A stretch of 61,361 bases of DNA from Pyrinomonadaceae bacterium (GTDB lineage: Bacteria; Acidobacteriota; Blastocatellia; Pyrinomonadales; Pyrinomonadaceae), in contig JBHENG010000004.1 in the NCBI GenBank assembly GCA_046262195.1, forward strand, positions 1 to 61,361. Reading direction: 5' to 3'. This document shows, piece by piece, positions 3,507-27,943 of the stretch. The translations under genes and the position numbers were made by a program. Each line of letters starts with the position of its first letter. The first letter of the stretch is position 1. The notes beneath the pieces were generated by a model. It had not been told where the DNA came from. It did no database searches and was given only the letters and a program-made list of their open reading frames with translations.

Positions 3507-3556
3507 ACCGTCAAATTATAACTTGTTGCCGGATTTGCGACCAACCAGGGCTGGCG

Positions 3557-5602: not shown

Positions 5603-5824
5603 TATACTTTGGGACAGGGAACAGTAGCGATCTATCGCGCACGCCGTCAGATCACAATTTGGAAGGGGTGCACGGGCTGAACCAAAACCCGCATATTCAA
5701 TTTATCACCCCGCCCGCAGACTGTCAATCGTTTTTGCCGATGTTGCTCATTGTAAAACAGTCTAGGAACAACTTTTGATTTTTACGAGTGGTTTTCTTAG
5801 TCTTGGACTTTATTTAGCGATGAT

Positions 5825-6865
5825 ATGCAAGCACTCATACTAGCCGGTGGAAAAGGCACGCGACTGCGGCCACTCACGGTTTATACACCGAAGCCTGTCG
5901 TGCCCATCATGAATAGGCCCCTCCTTCTTTACCAGATCGATGTTTTGCGAAAGGCGGGAATAACTGATGTCACACTATCGCTCAGTTATCAACCCGATAA
6001 AATCGAGCAGATAGTGGGGAGCGGTTCTGACATGGGCGTTAACCTACGATACATCACTGAGTCGAGTCCGATGGGTACTGGAGGCGCATATCGTTTCGCC
6101 CTCGAGGGTTCAAAGCAAACCACCGTAGTTTTTAACGGGGACATTTTAACTACCCTGGATGTCAATAAGCTTTTGGAATTTCATTTATCCAAAAAGGCCG
6201 CGGCCACCATGGCCGTCGTAGCGGTTGATGATCCTGCTATCTACGGCGTCGCTCAGGTTGATGCGTCGGATGCCGTGACACGATTTATTGAAAAGCCGGG
6301 GCCAGATGACCTGCCTGGCTTGCACGTTGACACCATCAATGCGGGAATCTATGTACTGGAGCCGGATATCCTTGAAGCCATACCACCCAATACAAACCAG
6401 TCATTTGAGTACGATATCTTTCCCGGTCTTCTCCGGGACGGCGGGCGTTTCTTCGGCTACACCATAACAAAGGATTACTGGACAGACATTGGAACACCCG
6501 ACAGTTATCTAGCTGCCCACCATGATTTCTTAGCCGGAAAAATCAAGGGTTTTGATATCGAAGCCGTCGTAAAATCGGATGTTGCAACCCGTGCAGAGAT
6601 AGATAATAAATCATTAATCGGCCCTGGCTGCACCATCAAGTCTGGGGCGCGGATCGTTAACTCAGTGATTGGAGCAGGCGTTCATATCGAAGAAAAAGCC
6701 ATTATTGAGAATTCAGTTGTATGGACCCATGGCCGCATCTCGGCCGGGGCCGAGGTCCGAAATTCGGTATTGGGTCGTAGCTGTCATATTGGTCGAAACG
6801 CGACCGTCGGCGCAGGATCAGTGCTCGGGGATAAGACGACTTTGACGGACTATACGTGCGTCTAG
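5825..6865 (+). CDS. NDP-sugar pyrophosphorylase (sugar-1-phosphate nucleotidyltransferase) with C-terminal left-handed beta-helix
   Basis: N-terminal LILAGGKGTRLRPLT signature. The C-terminus has hexapeptide repeats (IGPGCTI, IVNSVIGAGVHI..). Confidence 0.8.
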   Translation: MQALILAGGKGTRLRPLTVYTPKPVVPIMNRPLLLYQIDVLRKAGITDVTLSLSYQPDKIEQIVGSGSDMGVNLRYITESSPMGTGGAYRFALEGSKQTTVVFNGDILTTLDVNKLLEFHLSKKAAATMAVVAVDDPAIYGVAQVDASDAVTRFIEKPGPDDLPGLHVDTINAGIYVLEPDILEAIPPNTNQSFEYDIFPGLLRDGGRFFGYTITKDYWTDIGTPDSYLAAHHDFLAGKIKGFDIEAVVKSDVATRAEIDNKSLIGPGCTIKSGARIVNSVIGAGVHIEEKAIIENSVVWTHGRISAGAEVRNSVLGRSCHIGRNATVGAGSVLGDKTTLTDYTCV

Positions 6866-6925
6866 ATGCCTCCACTGCCGGCTTGAAGCAAACGGCAAGC
6901 CCGGCAAATTCATATTGGCAAAGGC

Positions 6926-6954
6926 TTGACACAAAACGCTTGAAAGCACATTAT
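6926..6954 (+). promoter_or_regulatory. candidate sigma70 promoter (TTGACA-17 nt-CATTAT)
   Basis: TTGACA at 6926-6931 and CATTAT at 6949-6954, with a 17-nt spacer. It lies about 120 nt upstream of the ATG at 7073. Confidence 0.4.
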
Positions 6955-7072
6955 CTTAGCTAATCTCGTGGTGAGTTAATGCGCGACTTGCGACCACGTT
7001 AAATAAACTGCTAAACAGCTCACAGACAACTCATTATTGAAAGTCTCGCTGTTTGGCGAGGCTTTTTGTTTT
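6955..7072 (+). promoter_or_regulatory. structured 5' leader, candidate riboswitch or attenuator for the Hcy-methyltransferase/MTHFR gene
   Basis: Stem CGTGGT (6967-6972) pairs with ACCACG (6993-6998), with an inner CGC/GCG helix. An A-rich tail TTAAATAAACTGCTAAAC follows. A second hairpin CTCGC(7045-7049)/GCGAG(7056-7060) contains the only SD-like GGCGAGG and is followed by a T-run that ends at the ATG. Confidence 0.3.
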
Positions 7073-11860: not shown

Positions 11861-12187
11861 TTAGACCGAGTGGTAAATTTCGTGCACGACAGTCAATATC
11901 GATTCCTCACCGGTTGCCTCAAGGGCGACAGCTTTCAAACCGTCCGTGTACTGGGCTAGAGCCTGAAAATTCTGATCGAGGTCGAACGGCGTATCTGCAT
12001 AAATGAGGTTGATGCCTTCGGTCTCTGGAATGCCTTCGGACGTTAGATAAGAACCTTTAGTTTCCGGGACTACGGTGCAGCCGCCGAATGTGTATAGAAA
12101 TTCGCGTTCCAGAACGGTCCGGAGCCGGCCCTGAAAGAGACCGCTCGGAAGATAGATCTCAATTCTTGCTCTTTTGGACAGCGGCAA
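11861..12187 (-). CDS. hypothetical 108-aa protein between glmU and glmS
   Basis: Intact ORF on the same strand as its neighbours. Its start overlaps the glmU 3' end by 29 nt. I recognise no motif. Confidence 0.45.
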   Translation of the reverse strand: MPLSKRARIEIYLPSGLFQGRLRTVLEREFLYTFGGCTVVPETKGSYLTSEGIPETEGINLIYADTPFDLDQNFQALAQYTDGLKAVALEATGEESILTVVHEIYHSV

Positions 12188-13670
12188 TAAATTTCTCCTT
12201 TCGCTCCGCGAAGCTATTCATCCTCGATATGGATGCCTCCCCAGAAACCCGTTCGGGAGATCGCTTTTGATGTGACGAGGTTTCACCAGTCATAGGGGAA
12301 GTCTCTTTTCTCTTTTTCACTGCGGCCGGTACGCCGGCGACCAAAGTGCCGGCCTCCACATCCTTCGTCACAACACTCCCGGCGGCCGTTGCAGAACCAT
12401 CACCAACCGTAACCGGAGCGACTAGCATTGTATCTGAGCCTATCTTGACTCCTGAGCCGATACGGGTCTCGTGTTTGTTCGTTCCATCGTAATTACAGGT
12501 GACGGTCCCGGCACCGATGTTGGTATTCTCGCCGATAATGGCGTCGCCCAGGTATGTGAGGTGGCTCGCCTTCGATCCGGCGCCAAGAGTAGTCTTCTTT
12601 AGCTCGACAAAATTACCCACCTTGGAGCCGGCGATCATCGAAGCTTTTCCGCGAAGATGCGCCATCGGGCCTACGGTGCAGTCGTCACCTATGGATGAAT
12701 CAACGATCAGGCAATTATCGCGGATCTCAACGGCGTTTCCGATGATCGAGTCTACGATTCGGGTGCCGGAACGCAGGACGCAACCGTCGCCAATAACGCT
12801 CTTTCCTTCAATGGTGACGTTTGGGTAAAGGACTGTGTCGCGACCGAGAGTCGAGCGCCTGCTGACGTATGTTGACGGTGGGTCGACCAGTGTGACGCCA
12901 TCTTTCAACATCAAACGCGTCCGCGTCCTTTGACGAAAGTTCTCTTCCATATCGGCCAATTGCCGTCGGTCATTCACGCCTTCGACCTCAGCGGGGTCGC
13001 TGCATTGAAAGATCGCAACGTCATCATTCTGCTGGCTAAGTATCCCCGGCACGTCGGTGAGATAAAACTCGCCCTGAGCGTTGTCCTTGTTGACCTGCGA
13101 AAGAGCAGCAAATAACTTTTTGCTGTTAAAACAGTAAATACCAGAGTTTATTTCATCGACTTGCTTGTCGTCATCGCTCGCGTCTTTCTGTTCGACAACC
13201 CGTTTGAAGAGGCCGTTATCGCCGCGGATGATCCGGCCGTACCCCGTGGGGTTCTCCAGTCGGACACTCAGAATGGTGCATGCGGCACCGCCTCCCCGGA
13301 ACTCTTCGTGCAGCTTTGTCAGCTCGGTCAGAGTCTGGCTCGTGATCATTGGGACGTCCCCGGAGAGAATGAGTAACGCGGAACTGTCTTTCTCCAGGAA
13401 CCGGCGACATGAATTGACCGCATCCCCCGTACCAAGCTGCTTTTCCTGTCTGACAAATGTTACGAAACTGCTGTCGAACTCACTGAGTACGCCGGCCTTG
13501 ACCTGCGCATCCTGATGCCCAACAACAACAAAGACTTTCTCCAGCGCCAACGCCAACGCCGTTTCAAGCACATGATTTATCAGGGGCCGGCCGTCTAATT
13601 CATGCAGGACCTTAGCTCGGTTGGACCTCATTCGAGTGCCAAGGCCGGCGGCCATGATCAATACGTTCAT
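12159..13670 (-). CDS. glmU: bifunctional UDP-N-acetylglucosamine pyrophosphorylase / glucosamine-1-phosphate N-acetyltransferase, with an extra basic C-terminal tail
   Basis: MAAGLGTRMRS nucleotidyltransferase signature and a long hexapeptide-repeat (LbH) domain. About 50 residues (..KKRKETSPMTGETSSHQKRSPER..) extend beyond where GlmU normally ends. Confidence 0.9.
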   Translation of the reverse strand: MNVLIMAAGLGTRMRSNRAKVLHELDGRPLINHVLETALALALEKVFVVVGHQDAQVKAGVLSEFDSSFVTFVRQEKQLGTGDAVNSCRRFLEKDSSALLILSGDVPMITSQTLTELTKLHEEFRGGGAACTILSVRLENPTGYGRIIRGDNGLFKRVVEQKDASDDDKQVDEINSGIYCFNSKKLFAALSQVNKDNAQGEFYLTDVPGILSQQNDDVAIFQCSDPAEVEGVNDRRQLADMEENFRQRTRTRLMLKDGVTLVDPPSTYVSRRSTLGRDTVLYPNVTIEGKSVIGDGCVLRSGTRIVDSIIGNAVEIRDNCLIVDSSIGDDCTVGPMAHLRGKASMIAGSKVGNFVELKKTTLGAGSKASHLTYLGDAIIGENTNIGAGTVTCNYDGTNKHETRIGSGVKIGSDTMLVAPVTVGDGSATAAGSVVTKDVEAGTLVAGVPAAVKKRKETSPMTGETSSHQKRSPERVSGEASISRMNSFAERKEKFIAAVQKSKN

Positions 13671-13704
13671 ATGCAGCAGTTTAACGGTTTACGAGCACTG
13701 ACCT

Positions 13705-14736
13705 TCAAGCAAACACCTCTTTCATGGGCCGGGCGGCACATAACAAAAGCACCTGAGCAAGCTTTTCCGGGTTATGCCGGACCATCTCGGCATCGTCCAA
13801 CAGGTTACCATAAATGACTTCTGCCGCCTCGATCGTTTCCGGGGCCAGGGAGCCGCCCACGCCGATCTGCACTGCCCCTTCGCCCCTATATTTAGCTAAC
13901 TGAAGTTCGCTGATCGGGTAGTTATTCACTAGAACGTAATCGAATGCTATTGCGGGTGCGTGTGCTCGTATGATTTCGAGATGCTGACGAGAGGTAAAGC
14001 CGTCTGTCTCGCCCGGCTGTGTCATCAGATTACATATGAAAACTTTGATCGCCCCGGATCGTGCGATCGACTCTGCGACACCGTCTACCAAAAGGGGGGG
14101 CAGGAGGCTGGTGAATAGCGAGCCAGGACCGATCGTTATGATATCGGCCTCTTGAATGGCTTCAAGAGCCTCTACCATCGGTTTACTGCCTTTCGGTTCG
14201 AGGTACAAATGCTCAATAGAACTGCCAACCTTGCCGATCTGGGTCTCGCCCCGTGTTATTGATCCGTCTTTCAGCCGGGCCGCAAGCCGCACGTCTGCCA
14301 CCGTCGCGGGGTAAATGTGACCCTTACTGGCAAGGATCTCTGACGAAAGTTTCACGGCTTCGGCAAAGTCGCCCGTGATCTCGGTCAGCGCAGCCAGGAA
14401 GATATTGCCGAAGCTATGGCCTCCCAGATCCCCCTCACCTCGAAACCTGTGTTGAAATAACTGTGAGAGCAACCGCGAATCTTCAGACAAAGCCACCATG
14501 CAGTTGCGGATGTCACCTGGAGGTAGCATTTGTAGCTCCTCACGCAGGCGCCCAGAGCTGCCGCCATCATCAGTGACGGCGACGATGGCAGATAACCTGG
14601 CTAGCCAGGCCGGTGCCGAATTCTCGGCGTGCACAAATCTCTTGAGCCCTGCCAAAACAGTTGCCAGTCCATTCCCCCCGCCAATTGCGACGAAATTCAG
14701 CCCCGCGGGTTCATCCGAAAAGAGATGGTGCTTCAT
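13705..14736 (-). CDS. yvcK: YvcK/GlmR (CofD-like, UPF0052) family protein
   Basis: Motifs AIGGGNGL, VTDDGGSSGRLR and PPGDIRNC are typical of the YvcK/CofD-like family. Confidence 0.85.
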   Translation of the reverse strand: MKHHLFSDEPAGLNFVAIGGGNGLATVLAGLKRFVHAENSAPAWLARLSAIVAVTDDGGSSGRLREELQMLPPGDIRNCMVALSEDSRLLSQLFQHRFRGEGDLGGHSFGNIFLAALTEITGDFAEAVKLSSEILASKGHIYPATVADVRLAARLKDGSITRGETQIGKVGSSIEHLYLEPKGSKPMVEALEAIQEADIITIGPGSLFTSLLPPLLVDGVAESIARSGAIKVFICNLMTQPGETDGFTSRQHLEIIRAHAPAIAFDYVLVNNYPISELQLAKYRGEGAVQIGVGGSLAPETIEAAEVIYGNLLDDAEMVRHNPEKLAQVLLLCAARPMKEVFA

Positions 14737-15028: not shown

Positions 15029-15511
15029 ATGGCAGAAACGCCTTTTATCTTGCAAGAACATCAGTTTCAGAGGCTTAAGACCGTCCTGGCGAGGCTTTGT
15101 GTAGAGTGCGCCGCACGCGTCGTTTTTCTGATCGACAGAGATGGTCAGCCAATTGCCTTTCACGGCCAGATTGGAAACATGGATACGACCAGCTTTGCGT
15201 CACTTGCTGCCGGGAACGTCGCTGCGACGAGCAGCATGGCTAAGCTCATCGGGGAAGACGCTTTTCCCTCGGTTTTTCACGAGGGAGAACGAGAAAGCAT
15301 ATTTATCAGTATAATTGGCCGAAGCCTGTTGGTCGTGGTTTTCGACGAGCGTTCAACGCTCAGCCTCGTAAAGATCAGAACAAAACGCGGCAGTTTCGAG
15401 GTCGCGTCCATCCTCGATGAGGCCACTGTTGACTCCGCGAATTTCAGGATCAATAACAGTTCGTTTTTCTCGGAGATCACCGACGAAGATATCGATAGTT
15501 TGTTCAGCTAG
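15029..15511 (+). CDS. mglB: Roadblock/LC7-domain GTPase-activating protein MglB
   Basis: 160 aa. The core ..VVFLIDRDGQPIA..DTTSFASLAAGNVAA..KLIGEDAFP..FHEG.. and the acidic tail ..EITDEDIDSLFS closely resemble Myxococcus MglB as I recall it. Confidence 0.85.
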   Translation: MAETPFILQEHQFQRLKTVLARLCVECAARVVFLIDRDGQPIAFHGQIGNMDTTSFASLAAGNVAATSSMAKLIGEDAFPSVFHEGERESIFISIIGRSLLVVVFDERSTLSLVKIRTKRGSFEVASILDEATVDSANFRINNSSFFSEITDEDIDSLFS

Positions 15512-15518
15512 TACGGTG

Positions 15519-15676
15519 GTGAATGGTAAATCGTAAATGGTCAATAGTGAAAAATGCGACCTTATGAAAGTTTGGAATTGATTACTGGTCTATCCAAGCA
15601 CCTTAAGGCCAAACTCTGACGATTTACGCTTTACCATTTTCCATTCACCATTTACCATTTACCATTTACCATTCAC
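15519..15676. repeat. heptamer-periodic inverted-repeat element in the mglB-mglA spacer
   Basis: The left arm (15519-15556) is GTGAATG GTAAATC GTAAATG GTCAATA GTGAAAA. The right arm (15620-15675) is 8 tandem 7-mers (CGATTTA CGCTTTA CCATTTT CCATTCA CCATTTA x3 CCATTCA). The reverse complement of the right arm matches the left arm at 30 of 33 positions, plus 6 more after a 3-nt bulge. Confidence 0.85.
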
Positions 15677-15682
15677 TGACCT

Positions 15683-16267
15683 ATGACATTCATTAATTAC
15701 GCCTCACGCGAGATTAATTGCAAGATTGTTTATTATGGCCCCGGTCTATGTGGCAAGACCACCAATCTCCAATACATATATGATTCCACCGCTCCGCAAG
15801 CAAAAGGAAAGCTGATCAGTCTCGCGACAGAGACCGACAGAACATTGTTCTTTGATTTTATGCCGCTGGAATTGGGAACAGTTCGCGGCTTCAAGACGCG
15901 ATTTCATCTGTATACCGTTCCAGGTCAGGTTTATTATGACGCTTCAAGGAAGCTCATCCTGAAAGGTGTCGATGGCGTCGTTTTTGTCGCCGACAGTCAG
16001 GAAGAGCGCATGGATGCAAATATCGAGTCACTTTTTAACCTCGAAGAAAACCTCCAGACGCAGGGCTATGATCTGAACCAGATACCCTATGTGCTGCAAT
16101 TGAACAAGCGGGATCTGCCAAATGTTACTCCTGTCGAAGAACTGTCGTCGGAACTGTCACGAAAGGGAGAACCAGTTTTCGAAGCAGTTGCCACGAACGG
16201 CGCGGGAGTTTTCGACACTCTAAAAGCTGTGGCTAAGCAAGTGCTCACGGAACTAAGAAAAGGCTGA
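15683..16267 (+). CDS. mglA: Ras-like small GTPase MglA
   Basis: The N-terminus ..[30 protein letters not shown].. and [22 protein letters not shown] are essentially the Myxococcus MglA signature. Confidence 0.95.
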
Positions 16268-16597
16268 TCAAGCCTAATTAAAGTAAAAATCAAAATGAGG
16301 GATGAACCGGTCATCTCTCTTTTGCTTTTTAAAGACTTGACCAAGGTGAATCGCGTTAACCCAATACCGTAAGGTGAGTTGAGGCGTGTTTGCTCGTTTT
16401 GGGGGAAATGGTTAGCGGCCCGTATCCACCAACTAACAAGAGCAGGCGTGAAAAAGAACGCCCAATGGAGATGTTCTGGCTGAGTTCCAAAAAAATTGAA
16501 ATGTTTTGGCCCGGTTCTCCACTCTCTAGTGAAAACACAATATTTCAGGACGCGTAGAGATGTCCTGACCAGTAAATAACAACAAAGGAGATCCGAA

Positions 16598-17260
16598 ATG
16601 AAAAAAGTTGCCCTAGCCATATTGTTCCTAGCCATGACAGCCGTGACCGGTTCCGCTTTTGGGCAGAAACCGGGCAATACGGTCGTCACCAGCACGATCG
16701 CCGATTCTGACGCCAATTTTATTCCGCTTAGTATTCAGAGCGACCTGCTGGGAGCCTATCTAAACGGTTCGGATTCAGTCGAATCGCAGATCCAGGGGGT
16801 CGGCGACTGGGAGTTGAACATGCTCGGTTCCGCGACCAGGCGAGTCAACGTGAATTTCGACGACCTCGTCGCCGGCTCAAACCCTAACAACCTGCCGGCA
16901 CCGACGAGCGGTTACCACCCGGTTCGTTTTATCACGCAATGCGGAGTGTATGGCTCAAACCTGCTGAACCTGACAACGGTGGGCCAAACTGCCACGTGCG
17001 GGATGATCGTTAGGGTGAACATAGGCAGTGACGGTTTTTCGCTGCGGTTCTATTCCCAAAATTTCCCGGGGTCTGACAATATTTCCGTCGCGTGTACCGC
17101 AGTTGCGAGCGGGAAATGCAGTGGTTGGCGGACGCAAAGCCCTAACGGGACCGGCAAGCTGATCGCGCAGGTTTACAAGGTCACGACGGTGAAAGGGAAG
17201 ACGGTACTGACTGATTACGGCAAATACCGGTTCTCATTCGATATTTCGTTCGCAAAGTAG
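16598..17260 (+). CDS. secreted hypothetical protein (beta-rich, 4 Cys)
   Basis: AAGGAG RBS 7 nt upstream. The signal peptide MKKVALAILFLAMTAVTGSAFGQ is followed by a mature part rich in G/S/T/N/V. Confidence 0.7.
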   Translation: MKKVALAILFLAMTAVTGSAFGQKPGNTVVTSTIADSDANFIPLSIQSDLLGAYLNGSDSVESQIQGVGDWELNMLGSATRRVNVNFDDLVAGSNPNNLPAPTSGYHPVRFITQCGVYGSNLLNLTTVGQTATCGMIVRVNIGSDGFSLRFYSQNFPGSDNISVACTAVASGKCSGWRTQSPNGTGKLIAQVYKVTTVKGKTVLTDYGKYRFSFDISFAK

Positions 17261-17445
17261 GTTCGCCCCGTATGCGTGATTTCCGTGTGAATGGAAACTC
17301 CAATGTGTTATGCTTCGGCCAATTCAAAAAAAAATGATCGTGGACGAGCGGCGGCTAAAATCGCCGCTTGTCGATATTTCCAGTTCCAACCCCATCGCCG
17401 CGGTTTATGAGGTCTCGGATTGAGGACTTTTTTCAGGAGTCAGGT

Positions 17446-20400
17446 ATGCGAAACGTACTATTGAAGTACTTATTGTCAAATAAAGGCACAGTCTGGAACA
17501 GGTATAACATCTCTGCCGTGTTCCTTCTTGTATTTCCCTTTTTTCCATTGGCCACTGTCGCGCAAACTCCATCGCCCGACCCTTTTTGGGGTAAGGTGCA
17601 AAAGTTGCGCGAGATCAAATTCGGAGAGACAGTCAGCGATATCGGTACGCCCGGAGCCTATCACGGATATCAGCTAACAATGGAGGCCGGGACGTCGGTG
17701 GAATGCAACCTCGGGGAGCGCGAGATCACAGTTGGGATGACGATGGTCATCCCGGACAAAGAGTACCCGGTGCCGGGTGATAGGGTGCCCGAATCAGTCG
17801 ATGTCGGACGAATCAGCTCATCTCAATACGGCCTTGTCGAGCCGGTGGTGATCGTGGCCGACAAAGCCGGAAAATATGTCATTAGGGCAATATTTACCGA
17901 AAAGGGCAGGTATTCTCTCAGCTGCGGTTTATCTCATCCTACGACCGATCGGGACAGGAAATACGCCGCAGCACAAAGGTTGTTCCTGGAGATAAGACAG
18001 GCGGTCGGGGCTCGCCGTAAGCCGCTGTCAGCTGTCGCCGACAAAATCAAAGAACGGGCCGGAATATATCGAAGCCTCGGTGATAAGAAGAGCCTCGCGC
18101 TAGCTCTAAATGACGTTGGATGGCTCCATATGGACGTTAATGAAACGGAGCAGGCTCTGGCGCATTTTCGGGAGGCGATGGATCTCTTTAAGTCTTTGGG
18201 CAGCAACGTTGACGTGAATCGGAGCCTTGTCAACTTCCGTTCGGTCTATGAATCGCAGGGGAATTATCAACAGATGGTAGACTACGAAAATCAGAGACTA
18301 ATGTTAAACCGCTCCTCGGGGTCTAAACGGCTGGAAGCCGACGCATTATTAAGTCTCGGTGTCATTTACCACCGGCTTGCAGATGAAACGAAGGCGCGGG
18401 AGTATTACGAACAGTTTTTCGGTATTCAAAGTGCTGTCGATCCCCCTACACTCGACTCGCTTAACGGCCAGGTTCTTTACTTCACAAACATGGCCAACCT
18501 TAGCCGCGGGATGAACGGCGGCGAGATACTTATTGATGCCTTTGGGCCGCGGACAGACGAGGACTATCGGAAAGCACTCGAGTACCTTACGCAATCCCTT
18601 GAGATCAACCGAAAGATGGAGACTCTATTTTCAACAACCGCACGTTTGCATACTTTCAATCTCTTGCAGATAGCGAATAGCTACAAGGAATTGGGGCAAT
18701 ATCCCGAGGCTCTGGAGTATTTGGATCGCTTCGCTGCAGCCCCGCGGTCTAACCGAGCCGGGGTGGCCATTCTTTACGGAAGTGTTTATGCACGGAAAGG
18801 AGACGTGGCGAAGGCTTCCGCGTACTTCGAGGACGTGATGAGGCTTCTGCGCGAAGGAGCAAACCCCGGAAATCATACCGGCTATCTGCAAAACATAGCA
18901 AAAGATTATTATTTTGCGGGCGAGTCACAGAAAGCTCTCGATGCATTGCAAGAGGCTCTCTTGATCGACCGGTCACGCCAGAATTCGATATCTGCGACGG
19001 ATTCACTTTTTCAAATTGCCCGTATCGAGCGGGATCTCGGCAATTTCAACAACTCGCGTAAGAACATTGAGGAAGCTATACAGATCGCCGAGACGGTACG
19101 CTCACGGATCACCGCCGACGAGCTGCGGACAACATACTTCTCCACGGCCAGGAGGTTTTACGAATTCTACGTGGACCTGCTGATGCAGGCCCGCAAGTCG
19201 CAGCCTGAGAAAGCGTTTGACGCGTTGGCCTTGCAAGCGAGCGAGAAGGCTCGATCCCGTAGTTTGTTGGATTTATTGACACTCTCTGGTATTGACATTA
19301 AGGAGGGTGTCGATCCTACGTTGCTCGCGCGCGAAAAATCGATTCGGGAAAGGCTCGCCCACAAGGCAAGCCAACAGAGTCGTTTACTGCTTGCGAAGCA
19401 TACCCCGGAAGAAGCCTCGAAGATCGGTCTGGAAGTTTCGGATCTCACGGGAGAATACCAAAAAGTTCAGGCTGAGATTAGAAATACGAGTCCGCGCTAT
19501 GCTGCCCTCACCCAGCCGACCCCGCTAAATACAAAGCAGATCCAGCAGCTCCTCGATTCGGGCACGATCCTTCTTGAATACTCGCTTGGCGAAAAGAAGA
19601 GTTATATGTGGGCGGTCACACCCGATTCGGTCACGAGCTTTGATCTGCCGGGGCGGGATGAGATCGAAAAGCATTCAAGAAAGGCGTATGGGCTGATGAC
19701 GGAGCGCAATCGTCAGGTAAAAGGCGAAACGGCTGCACAAGCCGGTGCAAGGGCGAAGGCCGCCGATGCCGAATATCCACGGGTGGCAGCCGCATTGTCG
19801 GAGATGCTGCTCGGTCCCGCGGCCGATCTGATCAGGAATAAGAGATTGCTGGTCGTGCCCGATGGCGCTCTAAACTATATATCGTTCGCCGCTCTGCCTT
19901 TGCCAAAAAATCGGGAGCCTAATACCGTCGCCGCAATGTCTTTGGGCGCATATCACGAAGTCGTTACGCTGCCATCGGCATCAACTCTCGCACGTCTGCG
20001 CGAAGAGGCTGTTGGCCGAAAGGTTGCGGACAAAATGGTCGCGATCTTTGCCGATCCCGTCTTTGGCACCGCCGACAGCAGGGCGGGTGTGCGGGCGAAA
20101 AGTCAGGCGACGAAAAACCAGTCGCAAAATGCTTTGTCCACGCGCGACTTCGAGCGAGCATTATCGGATGTCGGACTTGCCGCAAAGGGAACGGGGGGCT
20201 TGCCTCGGCTGCCGTTCTCGCGACGCGAGGCGGATGCGATCTTTGCCGTATCGCCAAAAAATCTGAGCCTGAAAGAAGTTGATTTCAAGGCAAGCAAGCA
20301 GGAGGTTTTTGGTGCGAATCTCGACCAATACCGCATTCTGCACTTTGCCACCCACGGTTTGCTCGATAGTCAGCATCCGGAATTGTCGGGCGTGGTTCTT

Positions 20401-20778
20401 TCGCTGGTGGATAAGAGCGGCAACGACATCGACGGATTTTTGCGGCTCCAGGACATCTACAATCTTAAGCTCAACGCCGATCTCGTCGTCCTGAGTGCCT
20501 GTAACACGGCGCTGGGCAAGGAGGTTAGGGGAGAAGGTCTGATCGGACTCACTCGCGGCTTTATGTATGCCGGAGCGCCGCGGGTTGTTGCGAGTTTGTG
20601 GAAGGTTGACGACGCGGCGACCGCCGAATTGATGGGAACATTTTATCGCAAAATGCTGGTTGACAATCTGCGCCCCGCAGCCGCTCTTCGAGCGGCGCAG
20701 ACAGAGATGATGAAGCAGCCGCGATGGCGCTCTCCGTATTATTGGGCTCCGTTCGTGCTGCAGGGCGAGTGGAAATGA
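17446..20778 (+). CDS. exported or anchored TPR-repeat CHAT-domain (caspase-like) protease
   Basis: ATG at 17446 is preceded by AGGAG. A hydrophobic N-terminal segment (ISAVFLLVFPFFPLATVAQ) is followed by a long TPR array. The C-terminal CHAT domain has His in HFATHG (20353-20355) and Cys in LSACNT (20500-20502). Confidence 0.85.
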   Translation: MRNVLLKYLLSNKGTVWNRYNISAVFLLVFPFFPLATVAQTPSPDPFWGKVQKLREIKFGETVSDIGTPGAYHGYQLTMEAGTSVECNLGEREITVGMTMVIPDKEYPVPGDRVPESVDVGRISSSQYGLVEPVVIVADKAGKYVIRAIFTEKGRYSLSCGLSHPTTDRDRKYAAAQRLFLEIRQAVGARRKPLSAVADKIKERAGIYRSLGDKKSLALALNDVGWLHMDVNETEQALAHFREAMDLFKSLGSNVDVNRSLVNFRSVYESQGNYQQMVDYENQRLMLNRSSGSKRLEADALLSLGVIYHRLADETKAREYYEQFFGIQSAVDPPTLDSLNGQVLYFTNMANLSRGMNGGEILIDAFGPRTDEDYRKALEYLTQSLEINRKMETLFSTTARLHTFNLLQIANSYKELGQYPEALEYLDRFAAAPRSNRAGVAILYGSVYARKGDVAKASAYFEDVMRLLREGANPGNHTGYLQNIAKDYYFAGESQKALDALQEALLIDRSRQNSISATDSLFQIARIERDLGNFNNSRKNIEEAIQIAETVRSRITADELRTTYFSTARRFYEFYVDLLMQARKSQPEKAFDALALQASEKARSRSLLDLLTLSGIDIKEGVDPTLLAREKSIRERLAHKASQQSRLLLAKHTPEEASKIGLEVSDLTGEYQKVQAEIRNTSPRYAALTQPTPLNTKQIQQLLDSGTILLEYSLGEKKSYMWAVTPDSVTSFDLPGRDEIEKHSRKAYGLMTERNRQVKGETAAQAGARAKAADAEYPRVAAALSEMLLGPAADLIRNKRLLVVPDGALNYISFAALPLPKNREPNTVAAMSLGAYHEVVTLPSASTLARLREEAVGRKVADKMVAIFADPVFGTADSRAGVRAKSQATKNQSQNALSTRDFERALSDVGLAAKGTGGLPRLPFSRREADAIFAVSPKNLSLKEVDFKASKQEVFGANLDQYRILHFATHGLLDSQHPELSGVVLSLVDKSGNDIDGFLRLQDIYNLKLNADLVVLSACNTALGKEVRGEGLIGLTRGFMYAGAPRVVASLWKVDDAATAELMGTFYRKMLVDNLRPAAALRAAQTEMMKQPRWRSPYYWAPFVLQGEWK

Positions 20779-20799
20779 GGTAGTCAATCAATCGGGCGG

Positions 20800-21354
20800 A
20801 TGAAGCAGTGGACGCTCTCGCAAAACTCCTTTGACCAGTTTTTATCGTGTCTTGATGCAGACCGCGACCTCGCCGGCCAGCAATACGAACAATTAAGGAC
20901 CCGCATTGTCAAATTTTTTGAGTGGAGGTCGTGCCTGGATCCCCACTCCCTCGCCGATGAGGCTTTTGACCGCGTGATCCGCAAGATCGACCAGGGCGAA
21001 AAGATAAACGACGTTCCGGCGTATCTCTACGGCGTCTCTAAGCTGCTTTACCTCGAGACCACAAAGCGCCAGCGACGCGAAGACCCGATCATCATTGACT
21101 TTCCCGTACAACCCAAGTTGGAAGAGGAAGACCCGCACCTACATTGTCTTGAGAACTGCCTTGCCCTGGTCTCGCACGATAAAAAGGAATTGATCCTCAG
21201 GTATTACGGCTTTGATCGCCAGGCAAAGATCGACGACCGGAAGAAGCTGGCTGATCATCTTGGGTTATCTATCAATGCACTCAGGATCAAGGCGTTGCGT
21301 ATCCGCTCACAGGTCGAGGAATGCGTTATGAGATGTGTTCGCGATGAGAAGTGA
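20800..21354 (+). CDS. ECF-type (group 4-like) RNA polymerase sigma factor
   Basis: 184 aa. The sigma2-like part is ..ADEAFDRVIRKI..YLYGVSKLLYLE... The sigma4 HTH is ..LILRYYGFD..KKLADHLGLSINALRIKALRIRSQV... It starts 21 nt after the CHAT gene. Confidence 0.7.
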   Translation: MKQWTLSQNSFDQFLSCLDADRDLAGQQYEQLRTRIVKFFEWRSCLDPHSLADEAFDRVIRKIDQGEKINDVPAYLYGVSKLLYLETTKRQRREDPIIIDFPVQPKLEEEDPHLHCLENCLALVSHDKKELILRYYGFDRQAKIDDRKKLADHLGLSINALRIKALRIRSQVEECVMRCVRDEK

Positions 21355-21402
21355 AATGTTTCAACGCAAAAAACCACTATTAACAGAAGCGAAGGCTTAA
21401 AT

Positions 21403-22347
21403 ATGAGCGCATACGACAACAAATTAGCTGCCGACTTCCTGCTCGGGCGGGTTTCTGAACAACAGCGAGCGAATATCGAACAGAGCTTCATTACGGATCA
21501 GCAAAGCTTTGAGCATCTGCTGCAGGCCGAGAATGATCTTGTCGACGACTATGTAGCCGATCGTTTGTCGGCGGACGACCGTCGACAGTTCGAATCAATT
21601 GTGCTCCCACGCCAAAAACAAAAGGTGGAATTTGCGCGGGCAATGGCAGCTTATGCAGCCGCGAATGCTACAGCCGACACACCAGCGCCCGCTGTCGAAA
21701 GCTGGCGAGAATGGTTCAGCGGTATCTTCACCATCGCTCCGGCTTACTCGGTCGGGTTTTCGGCCGCAGCCATTCTTGTTGCCCTCACGGCCATTTTTTT
21801 GTTGAACCGAACGTCGGAACCGGACCGCGCCGCCATAGACACACCAGCACCGCAGCAGATCGCTCCCACATTACCGCCAGAGCCCGGGCGGTCGACTGAC
21901 ACGTCCATCACCGTTCCCCCGTCGGTCACGGCCCCGGTTCGGGCTGAGAAACCTTCATCAGAACTGGCTCCGGCAACCCGTCCCAAGAATGTTCCCGCTG
22001 CTGAACACCAGCGATCAGTGACATCACTCATAGCGACCATCATGCTGGCTCCCGGCCTGACCCGAGGCGACGGTTCAAGCCCGGCGTCAGAACTCCCAAA
22101 TAAGGAGGGCGTCGTCCGTCTGCAGCTTCCGCCCGAACAGGGCGAATACCGCCGCTATGCGATCGTCGTCGAGACCGTGGACGGTCAGCAGGTCTGGAAC
22201 CAGCGTGTCTCCGCCGGAGCAGGCACGATCAGCACCACCGTTCCGCGAAAGCGGCTTTCACGCGGCGACTACATCGTCACGCTCAAAGGCATCGATGTCA
22301 CCGGTCTTGCCCAAACCCTCAACGAATATACATTTTCGATAAAATAA
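21403..22347 (+). CDS. single-pass membrane protein, putative anti-sigma factor
   Basis: It lies immediately downstream of the sigma gene. It has an N-terminal helical ~90 aa (..ADFLLGRVSEQQRANIEQSF..), a TM segment (VGFSAAAILVALTAIFLL), a Pro-rich linker and a C-terminal ~90-aa beta-rich domain. No HxxxCxxC zinc motif was seen. Confidence 0.55.
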   Translation: MSAYDNKLAADFLLGRVSEQQRANIEQSFITDQQSFEHLLQAENDLVDDYVADRLSADDRRQFESIVLPRQKQKVEFARAMAAYAAANATADTPAPAVESWREWFSGIFTIAPAYSVGFSAAAILVALTAIFLLNRTSEPDRAAIDTPAPQQIAPTLPPEPGRSTDTSITVPPSVTAPVRAEKPSSELAPATRPKNVPAAEHQRSVTSLIATIMLAPGLTRGDGSSPASELPNKEGVVRLQLPPEQGEYRRYAIVVETVDGQQVWNQRVSAGAGTISTTVPRKRLSRGDYIVTLKGIDVTGLAQTLNEYTFSIK

Positions 22348-22383: not shown

Positions 22384-22647
22384 GTGAAACCTGGTGAGGA
22401 GCTTATTCAACAAGGTCTCTACGACCTAGCGAACGGTGAGGAGACCGTTGCCGCTTTGGTCGTAGCCATCGGAGCGCCCAGGCTTCGGCGCGTTGGTCTC
22501 ATGCTCCCCGCCCAACTGCCATCTTCGCCCGAACACCGGCTTTACGAAAAACTTCAATTGATCGATCCAGACTCGGCGCATTCACAGTACAATGCCCTGA
22601 TACGGAGATTAGTGAGCTTTGAACGAGCGGCGGAATGCGGAGTTTAA
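22384..22647 (+). CDS. small hypothetical protein, possible partner of the downstream nucleotidyltransferase
   Basis: 87-aa ORF with a GTG start and no clear RBS. It overlaps the next ORF by 13 nt. Confidence 0.35.
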   Translation: MKPGEELIQQGLYDLANGEETVAALVVAIGAPRLRRVGLMLPAQLPSSPEHRLYEKLQLIDPDSAHSQYNALIRRLVSFERAAECGV

Positions 22648-23162
22648 CCGACCGGGACAAGATCTCAAGGTTTATGCACGCGCTGGGCTCGCGCGTAAGC
22701 CTATCGGCGCGAGTCTATCTTACCGGCGGCTCGTCGGCGGTGCTTCATGGCTGGCGGCTGACAACGCTCGACATCGATTTGAAATTTATACCTGATCTGG
22801 ATGAGATCTTTCGTCAGTTGCCCAAACTAAAGGAAGAGCTTGAGATGAATATCGAATTGGCGGCGCCCTCGGACTTCATCCCTGAATTACCGGGCTGGGA
22901 AGAACGTTCTATTTATATTGGAAGCGAGGGGAAGATCCGCTTTTATCACTACGATCCGTACAGTCAGGCGTTATCGAAGATCGAGCGGGGACATACGCAG
23001 GATGTGGCCGATGTCGAATCCATGTTTCGCGACAAGCTGATCGACGTCGAGCAGTTATTGCGCCATTTTAAAGAGATCGAGTCGCGGCTTTACCGCTATC
23101 CGGCGATAAATCCCGACAAATTCGCTGCCAATGTGCGTGCGGTTATCGAACGATTTGAATAG
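22635..23162 (+). CDS. minimal pol-beta-fold nucleotidyltransferase (DUF6036-like)
   Basis: 175 aa. LTGGSSAVLHGWRLTTLDIDLKF fits the G[GS]-x(9-13)-D-x-[DE] nucleotidyltransferase signature. The family name is from memory. Confidence 0.6.
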   Translation: MRSLTDRDKISRFMHALGSRVSLSARVYLTGGSSAVLHGWRLTTLDIDLKFIPDLDEIFRQLPKLKEELEMNIELAAPSDFIPELPGWEERSIYIGSEGKIRFYHYDPYSQALSKIERGHTQDVADVESMFRDKLIDVEQLLRHFKEIESRLYRYPAINPDKFAANVRAVIERFE

Positions 23163-24647: not shown

Positions 24648-25466
24648 CTAAAAAGGGCTGCCAAATAACAGTCTCGCGGCGCTCGCTTTACCCAAAACAT
24701 CAAAGACCTTCTCAATAGTGAAGCCTTTTCCTGCTACCAACACCTGGTCTCCTGGATTGAGGTAAACCATGTCGGCCTTTCCATTCTCCATCTGAGACAG
24801 GCTGACAGTTTTTCGTGCCAGCTTTCCGTCCTTGGTGTAGCTAACGACATAGACCTTGTTCTTATCGCCGTTTTTTGTTACTCCGCCAGATTCAATAATT
24901 GCTTCGTATACACTTACCTTTCGGTCCATAACGCGCACGCCAGGCGCGGCAACGTTTCCCATAACGCTGTACCGGGTGTTCATTGCTTTATCTAACGTAA
25001 CGGTGACTTTCGGCTCGATAATATACTCGTCCAGTTTTCGGGTGATCTCCTCAGCGACTTGTTCGACGGTTTTACCTGCCACTAAGATCCCTTCGCGAAT
25101 GAGCGGATATGAAATACGGGCGTTTGGCGGCACGGTCTTTCCCATTACGCAGTATTCAGGACATTGACCGAATACCTCAACCGAGATCATGTCGCTAGGA
25201 CCCAACCGATATTCCTTTAGGTAATTACGATAATAAGGCAATATATCGTCAGCACCGTCTGCCTCATCCCAACCATTATCCGGCGTGGCGACACCTGCTT
25301 TTGGCGCAATGGATGGAGCAGCTTTACCCGCGCCACCAGCTCGATCCGAGGGGTTTAGGCTGTCCTTTTGCGCGGCCGCGGTCGTTTGTCCGAGACCGTT
25401 CATCGCAGCGAAGCTAATAACCAGAACCGTTAGTGAAAAAGTCCGAAAAAAAGTAGTCGCTTTCAT
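24648..25466 (-). CDS. polysaccharide export protein (Poly_export + SLBB, Wza-like periplasmic part)
   Basis: Signal peptide, then YRLGPSDMISVEVFG (the Poly_export signature) and SLBB-like ..GDQVLV... Confidence 0.8.
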   Translation of the reverse strand: MKATTFFRTFSLTVLVISFAAMNGLGQTTAAAQKDSLNPSDRAGGAGKAAPSIAPKAGVATPDNGWDEADGADDILPYYRNYLKEYRLGPSDMISVEVFGQCPEYCVMGKTVPPNARISYPLIREGILVAGKTVEQVAEEITRKLDEYIIEPKVTVTLDKAMNTRYSVMGNVAAPGVRVMDRKVSVYEAIIESGGVTKNGDKNKVYVVSYTKDGKLARKTVSLSQMENGKADMVYLNPGDQVLVAGKGFTIEKVFDVLGKASAARLLFGSPF

Positions 25467-25524
25467 TTCTATTTCCTCGTCGAATGATGAAACGTCTATT
25501 TACCTTACGAATCCAGTTTTGAGG

Positions 25525-26913
25525 CTACTGCCCCTTTCCGAAAAGAACGGTCTTAATAGTGTCGAAAACGATAACCAGATCGAGTGTTAAACTCTGGTTC
25601 TTGATGTAATACAGGTCGTACTGAAGCTTCTGCATGGCGTCGTTGACAGATGCACCATACGGATATTTGATCTGGGCCCACCCTGTTAAGCCAGGGGCAA
25701 CAAGGTGCCGATGCTCAAAGTATGGGATCTCTTTCGCCAGCTGCTTGACGAAATGGGGCCGTTCGGGTCTCGGACCGACGAAATTCATTTCCCCTTTAAG
25801 GATATTCCAAAATTGGGGTATCTCATCGATACGCAGCTTGCGGATCACCCTTCCCACGCGAGTGGTCCGCGCGTCATTTGATGCGGCCCATAACGGCTTT
25901 CCGTCTGCCTCTGCGTCGGCTCTCATCGAGCGAAACTTAATTACATTGAACGAACGTCCACTCTTTCCAACTCGCTCCTGTTTGTAAAAGATCGGTCCTC
26001 GCGATTCAACTTTGATCAGCACGGCTGTGAGCACTGCCACCGGCAACGATACCAACAAGCCCAACAGAGCCAGCAACCTGTGGATCGATTCTCGGAATAC
26101 CAGTTTTATCGGCGAATCTCGTCGACGCCCTGCAAAGATCAGCCACGACGGGCGTAGCATATCGACGTGGACCTTGCCGGTGATACGTTCAAAAAAGGAG
26201 GTACATTCCTCGATAGACACGTCGCCAGCAAGGCTCATTTTTAATAACGCTTCGGTCGGGAAAGCGCCCCGGCGCTCGCGGACCGCGATGACAACGCGGT
26301 CGATCTTCTCGTTGCGTATAACTTCCTCGAGTTCATGGGCCCGCCCCAGGATTTCCGAACGCCCAAGCTTTTCGCGAGGTTTGGCACCATTTTCTGAAAC
26401 GAATCCAACGATACGATATCCGGCGTCCCGCCTTTCCCAGACGGCTTCGGCAGTATCCAGAGCTGTTTGCCCTGTGCCGACAACCAGTATCTTCTCACCG
26501 ATGTCCGGATGTCCCGTTAGCGAATGGATGAATATTCGCCACCCAAGCAGCAGGCACAGCACGAGTGGAACCGATATAACAGAAACGCCGCGCCCGATCA
26601 TCAATTGCGGGACAAAATAGAATATGAACGACAGCAGAACCCAGGCCACACCGAGGGCCTGCACAAGCCTGAGCAGGAGCTCACGGCGGTTCGTCATTAC
26701 TACGTAGTCGTAAAGGTCGTAAAAATAGAGGATCAGGAGGCTGACCAGGCTGGCGAACGCAACTTTTAACCAGCCGTTCTTAACATTCAGTTCGTTTGCG
26801 GAACCGGTTACCCCAACGCGCAGGTACATCGCAAGGATAACGCCGGCATAAAGAATGGCAGCGTCGGCCAGGAGCAGCCAAAAGATCCTTGGACTAAACT
26901 TAGATGCACCCAT
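25525..26913 (-). CDS. polyprenyl-phosphate glycosyl-1-phosphate transferase (WbaP-like, PEP-CTERM-system-associated type)
   Basis: N-terminal TM helices and a central Rossmann-like segment. The C-terminal bacterial sugar-transferase motifs are ..RFSMR.., GPRPERPHFV and PGLTGWAQI. Confidence 0.85.
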   Translation of the reverse strand: MGASKFSPRIFWLLLADAAILYAGVILAMYLRVGVTGSANELNVKNGWLKVAFASLVSLLILYFYDLYDYVVMTNRRELLLRLVQALGVAWVLLSFIFYFVPQLMIGRGVSVISVPLVLCLLLGWRIFIHSLTGHPDIGEKILVVGTGQTALDTAEAVWERRDAGYRIVGFVSENGAKPREKLGRSEILGRAHELEEVIRNEKIDRVVIAVRERRGAFPTEALLKMSLAGDVSIEECTSFFERITGKVHVDMLRPSWLIFAGRRRDSPIKLVFRESIHRLLALLGLLVSLPVAVLTAVLIKVESRGPIFYKQERVGKSGRSFNVIKFRSMRADAEADGKPLWAASNDARTTRVGRVIRKLRIDEIPQFWNILKGEMNFVGPRPERPHFVKQLAKEIPYFEHRHLVAPGLTGWAQIKYPYGASVNDAMQKLQYDLYYIKNQSLTLDLVIVFDTIKTVLFGKGQ

Positions 26914-26929
26914 TGTATTAAGCGCCAGA

Positions 26930-27943
26930 TCACGGACTCAGCGATTCGTTTAGCCGCTTGTAGTTGTAGTACCCGTAGTTATAATGCGAATCGTCCATTA
27001 CCTCTTCGCTCTGATTAAGCACCACGCCGAGCATCCGGTCCTTTGGAAGGTGTTCCAGTAATCGGTCCATGACTCCGTAGCGCGTTCTATTTGCCCTGAC
27101 CACCAGCATTGCTCCATCGGCATGATTGATCAGGACGGCTGCGTCGGTGAAAATACCCAGTGGCGGCGCGTCGATGATCACATAATCGAACATTTCGCGA
27201 GCCTCTCGCAGGATCTCTTTGAACTTTGGTCCCGATATAAGCTCGGCCACGTCGCTGCGAGCGTCCCCACCCGGGAGGATATGCAGACCCGCAGGTTCCA
27301 GGCGGACAATGGACTCAGCTACTGTGGCGGTTCCCGACAGTACGTGAGATAAACCCCGGTCGGTCTCGATCCCGAGGTAATCAGCAAGACTCGGCATACG
27401 CAGATCGCTGTCAATGATCAGCGCTTTGACCCCGTCAGTCTGAGCGAGGAGCCATGACAAATTGAGCGCTGTCACGGATTTCCCCTCACCCGGGTTTACA
27501 CTGGCGATGACGATCGACTGCAGTTTCTGACGTTGGCTTTTATGCAATACGTGCGTTCGTAAGCTGCGATATTCTTCGCAGTAGGTGGAGTTCGGCCGCG
27601 TTATTGCAACGAGACGTGGCTCAACGCGTTCGGGGTCGACGGTCCACCTGACAAAGTCAGGCAGCTCGCGAACCCCGGAACGCGTTAAGCTTTCAGCGTT
27701 CAATTTTGCCCCGGCAGTTTTTTCCAATTCCAAATCAGGGAGTGCCGTCCCGACAATGGAATCCGGCTGCCCCATGAACGCCGAACTTGGATGACCGATC
27801 TTTAGTTCCGTTGAGAGAAGGTCGGGCGGCATGTGAAGCCGACGAACGCTGCGGTCGAACGGTACGAGATTGGGTTCAGAAGCCGAGATCTTTTCGATCC
27901 CGCCTTCGATACGTTTCTTTTCTAAGGCTTTAAGAATGCTCAT
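26930..27943 (-). CDS. BY-kinase-type P-loop ATPase (EpsG/CapB-like) with C-terminal tyrosine cluster
   Basis: Walker A is NPGEGKS, Walker A' is IIDSDLR and Walker B is VIIDAPP. The C-terminus is ..HYNYGYYNYK... Confidence 0.8.
   Translation of the reverse strand: MSILKALEKKRIEGGIEKISASEPNLVPFDRSVRRLHMPPDLLSTELKIGHPSSAFMGQPDSIVGTALPDLELEKTAGAKLNAESLTRSGVRELPDFVRWTVDPERVEPRLVAITRPNSTYCEEYRSLRTHVLHKSQRQKLQSIVIASVNPGEGKSVTALNLSWLLAQTDGVKALIIDSDLRMPSLADYLGIETDRGLSHVLSGTATVAESIVRLEPAGLHILPGGDARSDVAELISGPKFKEILREAREMFDYVIIDAPPLGIFTDAAVLINHADGAMLVVRANRTRYGVMDRLLEHLPKDRMLGVVLNQSEEVMDDSHYNYGYYNYKRLNESLSP

Follow-up and report, generated by a model that had tools for sequence, protein, structure and literature searches.

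In a 61,361-nt stretch of contig JBHENG010000004.1 (assembly GCA_046262195.1; hereafter the window) from a Pyrinomonadaceae bacterium, four co-directional open reading frames (ORFs), all on the + strand, encode a small secreted protein (16598-17260), an exported protease with a tetratricopeptide repeat (TPR) array and a CHAT domain (17446-20778), a divergent extracytoplasmic function (ECF)-type sigma factor (20800-21354) and a single-pass anti-sigma factor (21403-22347). The ORF list confirmed these positions, which had been given in an initial annotation made from the DNA alone, together with the spacings of 21 nt between the CHAT and sigma genes and 48 nt between the sigma and anti-sigma genes. 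Based on the analyses below we consider it very probable that these genes represent a conserved, functional ECF module of the Acidobacteriota (Blastocatellia) and that the CHAT protease belongs to it.

The assignment of the 1110-aa protein as a CHAT protein is based on a match to Pfam PF12770 (E 2.6e-68, 231 bits versus a cut-off of 24) which spans profile positions 2-289 of 289 and places the domain at residues 779-1108 (19780-20769). Both residues of the catalytic dyad are present at the codons identified initially, His970 (CAC at 20353-20355) within HFATHG and Cys1019 (TGT at 20500-20502) within VLSACNT, and they were invariant among the relatives in our locus census (His in 66/66 and Cys in 71/71 aligned CHAT domains). 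The protein is predicted to be a cysteine protease of the caspase-like clan CD with an intact dyad. Multiple Pfam TPR families matched residues ~190-580 (TPR array, residues ~191-580; 18016-19185), and hydropathy identified an N-terminal export/anchor segment at residues 21-39 (17506-17562) which ends ATVA↓Q, so that the export segment, TPR array and CHAT domain of the initial annotation were all recovered. A hydrophobic segment of the same kind was found at the N-terminus of 31 of the 34 complete CHAT ORFs of relatives, and the start codon, ATG at 17446, is backed by a conserved GGAGTCnGnTATG context in relatives. The region between the export segment and the TPR array, which the initial annotation had described as a ~130-aa beta-rich domain, is a conserved N-terminal domain (residues ~45-190; 17578-18015) with hidden Markov model (HMM) matches in 12/12 close loci; a profile search of the PDB with this domain returned no match. 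L010 has only one sigma/anti-sigma pair but, ahead of it, two tandem paralogous TPR-CHAT genes (1123-4518 and 4694-7972), both of which encode the N-terminal domain.

The 184-aa sigma factor has no Pfam match of its own and its NCBIfam ECF matches were sub-threshold only (TIGR02989, 1.3e-9). Single-sequence searches of the PDB with the sigma and anti-sigma factors of the window gave nothing useful, and profiles were required. A profile of the 30-member sigma family aligned to the ECF factor SigL (6dv9_F) over sigma2-sigma4 with E 0.0033, and matches to Sigma70_r4_2 and Sigma70_r2 were found in 18 and 4, respectively, of the 30 relatives. The size of the protein is consistent with the ~180-200 aa of ECF (group IV) sigma factors, which have sigma2 and sigma4 only, and a hydropathy scan found no hydrophobic segments. 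The ECF-type identity proposed initially is therefore borne out at the family level. Four cysteines are invariant, or nearly so, in the sigma family: C116 (21145-21147) and C120 (21157-21159) in a CLExCL motif at the start of sigma4, and C175 (21322-21324) and C179 (21334-21336) in an ECVxxC motif at the C-terminus. These may form a zinc or redox site on the sigma factor itself, the anti-sigma domain (ASD) of its partner being without the usual zinc ligands.

The 314-aa anti-sigma factor of the window also lacks a Pfam family match of its own, and its domains were delineated by hydropathy, family HMMs and an AlphaFold2 (AF2) model built with 56 sequences. In this model a helical N-domain of the zf-HC2 class (residues 1-89; 21403-21669), with a confident bundle at residues 3-89 (predicted local distance difference test, pLDDT, >93), is followed by a transmembrane (TM) helix (residues ~112-135 by hydropathy, 116-135 in AF2; 21736-21807), a disordered Pro/Ser/Thr-rich linker (residues 136-208; 21808-22026) and a confident seven-strand beta-sandwich (residues 209-313; 22027-22341) whose PDB matches are fibronectin type III (FnIII)/Ig-like domains. 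The pLDDT values exceed 90 in both folded domains. L215 and R221 (22063-22065), situated in a lower-confidence loop after the first strand of the sandwich, are invariant in the 56 sequences. The zf-HC2 assignment is based on relatives, as PF13490 was matched by 42 of the 56 family members (best E 1.2e-8). The N-domain of the window protein itself contains no Cys, the zinc-binding H-x3-C-x2-C motif being absent, and is by its sequence a non-zinc ASD variant. Many ASDs are non-zinc variants.

A word-indexed homologue search with the ASD alignment gave fragments only, and an exhaustive HMMER search and the locus census were used instead. The former identified 6,745 anti-sigma clusters at 50% identity with E <= 1e-3, of which 2,683 had E <= 1e-10; the best 150 clusters all had the same full-length architecture of ~300-350 aa. 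A common origin of the anti-sigma C-domain and the N-terminal domain of the CHAT protein was considered and rejected (hhalign probability 2%). Two loci have an extra ORF of ~208 aa (L048, 4704-5330; likewise L054, 8558-9232) which encodes a signal/anchor segment and a second FnIII-like anti-sigma C-domain without an anti-sigma N-domain; the ORF, for which Pfam gave no match, is placed between the anti-sigma and secreted-protein genes and is accompanied by a separate copy of the promoter motif described below. A common, extracytoplasmic location is predicted for the CHAT protein and the anti-sigma ectodomain, and a topology check by hydropathy on all four proteins agreed with this expectation of the initial annotation.

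The first gene of the module was initially regarded as an orphan encoding a secreted, Cys-containing, beta-rich protein. The latter description is supported by a Sec-type signal peptide at residues 1-22 (AFG↓Q, by hydropathy), by four invariant cysteines in its family (Cys115, Cys134, Cys166 and Cys174) and by an all-beta AF2 model (pLDDT 84, predicted template modeling score 0.78). The 220-aa protein is not an orphan, having 33 homologues and belonging to a family which is linked to the module in 20 non-redundant loci. Proteins of ~240 aa that occupy the same slot elsewhere are remote homologues (subfamilies A and B; hhalign probability 95.4%, E 1.9e-8, 213 columns), which indicates a single fast-evolving family with four invariant cysteines. 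A fold search of the model against the PDB gave no significant match, only vague beta-barrel likenesses. The linked genes lie upstream of CHAT in 12 loci and downstream of the anti-sigma gene in 8, and about ten other long loci have no member of the secreted family within 7 kb. The downstream-placed genes are again preceded by the promoter motif (L048/L054, L067 and L081). Since the motif stays in front of the gene even when the gene has moved to the other end of the module, the small secreted protein is probably, as judged from these arrangements, chiefly a sigma-dependent, strongly expressed output rather than an obligate partner.

Two copies of an ECF-type promoter-like motif were found on the + strand of the module, each consisting of GAAAT and CCACT separated by 16 nt; two 5-mers at a distance of 16 nt is the geometry of ECF promoters. 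The first copy, P1 (16496-16528; GAAAT at 16498-16502, CCACT at 16519-16523), lies ~75 nt upstream of the 220-aa gene. The second, P2 (21351-21383; GAAAT at 21353-21357, CCACT at 21374-21378), has its GAAAT overlapping the sigma stop codon and lies ~25 nt upstream of the anti-sigma start codon. The exact pattern GAAAY-N16-CCACT occurs twice in the 61-kb window versus an expected 0.03 occurrences, and no sigma-70-type promoters were found on the + strand of the module. Both sites are conserved in 12/12 close loci, P1 as GAAAYGTTTT-N11-CCACYT ~60-100 nt upstream of the small secreted gene of either sequence subfamily, and P2 as GAAAYnnnTC-N11-CCACT in the sigma/anti-sigma gap. With a position weight matrix (PWM), P1 and P2 scored 20-42 bits versus <=14 bits for other sites across the 12 loci and the window; the window copies scored 26.6 bits (P1) and 31.4 bits (P2), and sites in the window on which the PWM had not been trained scored <=6 bits. 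A weaker motif-like site at 16403-16435 (GGGAAATGG...CCACC) precedes P1 by 93 nt and lacks conservation in other loci, and its score of 16.8 bits is inflated because the site is itself within the PWM training set.

In 466 kb of sequence outside the PWM training set, the motif recurred at the sigma/anti-sigma junction in ~15 independent loci. It was also present directly after the anti-sigma gene, before downstream genes, and was absent directly before CHAT, with the exception of L057 (1322-3174), where a 22-bit site precedes a clostripain-family gene (Peptidase_C11, E 1.1e-28) situated directly upstream of CHAT. At this locus a further clan-CD protease, the Peptidase_C11 product, takes the position that the small secreted gene has in the window; a C25-type peptidase is also encoded in the DdvA operon of Myxococcus xanthus (PMC11506125). 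Other genes behind the motif have diverse secreted products, among them a lactonase-like lipoprotein, a DUF2272 protein and a clostripain-family peptidase. We infer from these distributions that P1 and P2 are candidate ECF promoters through which the sigma factor would regulate its own module. In most relatives a palindrome, CCACTnnnnAGTGG, has the -10-like CCACT of P2 as its left arm and overlaps the ribosome-binding site of the anti-sigma gene (AGTGGAGG) with its right arm, as in L018 (10590-10606) and at the same junction in L006, L009, L010, L011 and L007; the window copy is without it. The palindrome could occlude the ribosome-binding site in read-through transcripts but not in those from P2, or could act as an operator.

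The short gaps had been taken initially as an argument for co-transcription of the protease, sigma and anti-sigma genes. The gaps are real, but the presence of a promoter-like motif inside the 48-nt gap means that short spacing is no proof of a single transcript, as the anti-sigma gene may have its own start site at P2. At the other end of the module, the interval between the small gene and the CHAT gene contains a stable RNA hairpin (17340-17375, + strand; dG -23.6 kcal/mol, z -2.9). Analogous hairpins, several with T-runs, are found at the same place in L002, L006, L010, L011, L015 and L018, and the hairpin of the window is, by its position and predicted stability, likely an attenuator or partial terminator.

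To determine how often these genes occur together, component HMMs were compared with six-frame translations of all loci, which comprised 95 non-redundant sigma loci. A scan of genome contigs with the single sigma protein contributed 8 loci, and a profile scan of metagenome contigs found >456 further sigma relatives, mostly from soil and mostly at ~40% identity, of which the best 80 were used; the census is therefore biased toward closer relatives. Sigma homologues at 50-65% identity were found in Pyrinomonadaceae and Chloracidobacterium metagenome-assembled genomes (class Blastocatellia), and all of their contigs have the order small secreted gene, TPR-CHAT, sigma, anti-sigma. In the full set, CHAT, sigma and anti-sigma genes occur in that order in 58 loci, and in 5 the CHAT gene is downstream and convergent to a sigma/anti-sigma pair. 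The sigma gene is followed by a single fused protein in 2 loci, CHAT is missing in 8 loci with both sides assessable, 7 have no CHAT upstream with the downstream side not assessable, and the arrangement was not assessable in the remaining 15. Thus, CHAT adjoins sigma in 65 of the 73 fully assessable loci (89%), in support of the linkage noted initially, and an ASD-type gene adjoins sigma in 81/83. The conserved core of the module is formed by the CHAT, sigma and anti-sigma genes. The flanking genes are unrelated between loci and mostly housekeeping, and this, along with the three gene orders and the 65/73 adjacency, rules out chance proximity of CHAT and sigma.

The two fused forms are particularly informative. 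In L013, whose sigma factor is 40% identical to that of the window, the sigma gene is followed by a gene for a 1209-aa protein that has an anti-sigma N-domain, a TM helix and a TPR-CHAT region, the N-domain carrying the same motif as the window anti-sigma factor (YLLGEL...E..ELLDDY...L...R..FE). The protein of L088 has the same layout and, although outside the set from which the ASD profile was built, matched that profile with E 6e-32 and Pfam CHAT with E 1.1e-65. These proteins provide a Rosetta-stone argument for a direct relationship between CHAT and anti-sigma factor. Both lack two domains of the split forms, the FnIII-like C-domain of the anti-sigma factor and the N-terminal domain of the CHAT protein, and we infer that these extra domains may be docking modules which reconstitute the fused arrangement non-covalently.

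An additional gene was observed in three loci, L084 (8626-9672, - strand), L074 (7730-8893, -) and L096 (8706-9758, -), where a secreted ~350-aa ARPP-1 protein (PF20208, E 1.7e-59) is encoded convergent to the anti-sigma gene. L074 and L084 are CHAT-less and L096 contains CHAT; the ARPP-1 protein may be an alternative or additional partner in this subclade.

The left boundary of the module in the window is a terminator-like hairpin (16297-16319, + strand) with a 9-bp stem followed by a T-run (tail TTTTGCTTTT), which closes an upstream unit (15029-16267) encoding a Roadblock/LC7 protein and a small Ras/Arf-like GTPase, an MglB/MglA-like pair. GlmU-like and CofD-family genes lie further upstream (12159-14736). 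Just downstream of the module are two small overlapping genes, 22384-22647 and 22635-23162, encoding an 87-aa protein without a family match and a DUF6036 nucleotidyltransferase (E 1.2e-11), respectively; the pair is toxin-antitoxin-like in appearance, is not kept beside the module elsewhere and was not matched by PADLOC. An exopolysaccharide export/initiation cluster follows on the - strand (24648-27943), comprising a Poly_export/SLBB (Wza-like) protein, a bacterial sugar transferase and an AAA_31/ParA-type ATPase, the last being a tyrosine-kinase-like co-polymerase component.

The initial annotation proposed that an extracytoplasmic CHAT protease acting on an anti-sigma factor would be a different logic without a characterised example. 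This is not the case, as there are two precedents. In Myxococcus xanthus, the ECF sigma factor DdvS is paired with DdvA, a single-pass anti-sigma factor with a periplasmic TPR-CHAT region of ~900 residues (PMC11506125, PMC6061681). The cryo-EM structure of DdvA (PDB 8rot/8rw5) has an intact dyad in the resting state, DdvA is degraded in an RseP-dependent manner once the TPR-CHAT region is removed, and its authors proposed explicitly a self-cleavage in trans, with CHAT as the site-1 protease, after which RseP acts (PMC11506125). In the Craspase of type III-E CRISPR systems, an ECF-like sigma factor is inhibited by Csx30, and cleavage of this inhibitor by the TPR-CHAT protein Csx29 has been shown experimentally (PMC10028731).

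By analogy, the reading that we lean toward on balance is that the CHAT protein of the window is an extracytoplasmic input protease which initiates degradation of the anti-sigma factor. In the resting state, the anti-sigma N-domain would sequester the sigma factor at the membrane. His970/Cys1019 would become active upon a signal in the periplasm that is detected by the TPR array, by the N-terminal domain of the CHAT protein or by both, and CHAT would then cut the exposed periplasmic part of the anti-sigma factor in trans, as a site-1 protease, either in the disordered linker or in the conserved LxPGxTR-G loop at the beginning of the FnIII-like domain. Cytoplasmic proteases and an intramembrane site-2 protease whose gene lies elsewhere would complete the degradation, and the freed sigma factor would transcribe from P1 and P2. 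Transcription from P1 would yield the small secreted protein and, by read-through of the hairpin, CHAT and sigma, providing positive feedback; P2 would supply new anti-sigma factor, a negative feedback that resets the switch.

This proposal of CHAT as input is based on the fused forms, the shared compartment, the invariant dyad and the two precedents. It is further based on the fact that the CHAT-sigma-anti-sigma unit is conserved far more tightly than any output gene, and on the distribution of the motif, which in most of the wider family precedes the anti-sigma gene and downstream genes and is absent directly upstream of CHAT, as would fit an input and not an output. Several observations weigh against it. 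In the clade of the window, P1 lies upstream of the secreted-protein, CHAT and sigma genes, so that CHAT is probably induced by the sigma factor as well and might itself be an output. The vicinity of the module contains no gene for a site-2 protease, and the CHAT-less loci (8 of 73, and the 7 with partial flanks) keep the same anti-sigma ectodomain. The promoter assignment on which the feedback loops depend is based on motif conservation only. With respect to the precedent, the site-1 step of CHAT in DdvA is unproven and its dyad mutants have no phenotype absent the signal (PMC11506125); moreover, the window CHAT has no close sequence relationship to DdvA and the analogy is an architectural one.

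CHAT could instead be an output of the sigma factor, an alternative which we consider unlikely, although it is the most substantial of those that we weighed. The anti-sigma factor would then sense its signal via the FnIII-like domain and be degraded by unlinked housekeeping proteases of the DegS, Prc or RseP type, and the sigma factor would induce the secreted beta-protein and CHAT. The substrates processed by CHAT would be periplasmic or on the surface, the small secreted protein possibly among them. The position of P1 in 12/12 close loci, the motif before the C11 peptidase gene directly upstream of CHAT in L057, the retention of the same anti-sigma architecture without CHAT and the assortment of secreted proteins behind the other motif copies are all in keeping with it. 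Against an output role stand the L013 and L088 fusions, in which CHAT is physically part of the anti-sigma factor, the lack of a motif directly before CHAT in most of the wider family when the motif does precede the anti-sigma and downstream genes, and the hairpin that separates the P1-driven small gene from CHAT. In addition, the order CHAT, sigma, anti-sigma is far more conserved than the position of the output genes.

A CHAT protein that acts without proteolysis appears less probable again, and we regard it as distinctly unlikely. Under this scheme CHAT would be an RseB-like shield or co-sensor, attached to the FnIII-like ectodomain by its N-terminal domain or TPRs, and would sterically keep site-1/site-2 proteases from acting until displaced by a ligand. 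The behavior of DdvA provides a parallel, since its bulky TPR-CHAT region protects it against RseP and removal of that region suffices for degradation (PMC11506125), and the two extra domains of the split forms could be the docking modules. The two domains share no homology, however, and the invariance of His and Cys in 66-71 sequences that span ~35-80% identity argues for retained catalysis. A DdvS/DdvA-type regulator of an anti-phage defence island is very improbable. In its favor, the architecture is similar to that of DdvA, the small DUF6036 nucleotidyltransferase pair lies just downstream in the window and MazE/Fic, HNH and DUF4357 genes precede the module in L016. Against it, neither the module proteins nor the downstream pair gave a match to a PADLOC defence model, the flanks differ at every locus and are mostly housekeeping, and no motif sites precede defence genes.

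If CHAT is indeed the input protease, a bolder extension, which we put forward tentatively and regard as doubtful, is that free exported TPR-CHAT proteins are a new class of dedicated site-1 protease for regulated intramembrane proteolysis that cut in trans the Arg-containing loop, LxPGxTR↓G, of the FnIII-like ectodomain of a zf-HC2 anti-sigma factor. Such a caspase-like cascade would be among the commonest ECF inputs of soil Acidobacteriota, given the thousands of protein clusters, and the fast-evolving small secreted protein, beyond being an output, would act on it as bait or as a securin-like inhibitor.

Destruction of an anti-sigma factor triggered by CHAT has so far been a proposal for one protein, DdvA, in which it is hard to test because protease and presumed substrate are in one chain. 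In the split family the two are naturally separate, and testing for cleavage in trans is straightforward. The family also supplies a candidate promoter motif and candidate outputs. Furthermore, the numbers of sigma relatives (>456) and anti-sigma clusters (6,745) indicate that the connection between CHAT and ECF sigma factors is common in the Acidobacteriota and no curiosity of Myxococcus, and this phylum is abundant in soil and very little studied with regard to signalling.

Comparison with canonical regulated intramembrane proteolysis (DegS/RseP-RseA, PrsW/RasP-RsiW and Prc in cell-surface signalling) identified several features that are predicted for the window module as well: a single-pass anti-sigma factor, a cytoplasmic sigma-binding domain, a first cut outside the cytoplasm and an autoregulated sigma operon. 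The difference lies in the candidate site-1 protease: that of the window is dedicated, is encoded together with the switch and belongs to the clan-CD cysteine proteases, with a TPR array, and is neither a PDZ serine protease nor a metalloprotease. Neighborhoods of caspase, ECF sigma and TPR (DUF1822) genes are known from comparative genomics (PMC8195603), and our module is similar to these in that, in both cases, caspase-superfamily peptidases were linked computationally to ECF sigma genes and TPR proteins. The EACC2/TRADD-N proteins of those systems are cytoplasmic conflict-system proteins, however, and no exported CHAT or zf-HC2/FnIII-like anti-sigma factor was described there. CHAT is not mentioned in the main text of the ECF reclassification paper. 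Within the library that we searched, no paper joins the CHAT domain, Acidobacteria and a sigma factor, and only the DdvA paper joins TPR-CHAT, periplasmic and anti-sigma.

Craspase resembles the window module in pairing a TPR-CHAT protein with a sigma inhibitor and is the experimental proof that CHAT proteases can gate sigma factors. Unlike the window system it is cytoplasmic and RNA-activated through Cas7-11, and Csx30 is soluble and unrelated to zf-HC2 anti-sigma factors. Neither Cas7-11, Csx30 nor Csx31 was found in the window flanks or the related loci, and Csx29 matched the CHAT profile only marginally (E 0.13).

The closest parallel is DdvS/DdvA, with which the window module shares an ECF sigma factor, a single-pass anti-sigma factor and a (predicted) periplasmic TPR-CHAT region with an intact His-Cys dyad, and L013 and L088, relatives by virtue of their sigma factors, have the exact fused ASD-TM-TPR-CHAT layout of DdvA. 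The proposed order of cuts, first by CHAT as site-1 protease and then by RseP, is likewise common to both. In the window, in contrast, protease and anti-sigma factor are separate polypeptides, the anti-sigma factor carries an FnIII-like ectodomain of its own, a signal peptide and an N-terminal domain are present on CHAT, and the ASD is without zinc ligands. There is also no CBASS/CRISPR regulon at the window module, as there was no PADLOC match and the flanks are unrelated. DdvA-like proteins have been reported only in Myxococcota and one Comamonas (PMC11506125), a narrow distribution compared with our far larger family in a different phylum, the Acidobacteriota. Sequence homology to DdvA (8rot_B, 991 aa) was considered and not upheld, as the CHAT-domain profile did not recover it at E <= 1; the L088 protein matched 8rot_B in the TPR region only (E 1.1e-3). 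The logic of CHAT and sigma factor was known already, and what is new is the promoter motif occurring twice per locus, the secreted-protein family and the large family of zf-HC2/FnIII-like anti-sigma factors. By analogy, the window module is a split, apparently independent counterpart of the DdvA logic and not a member of the DdvA family.

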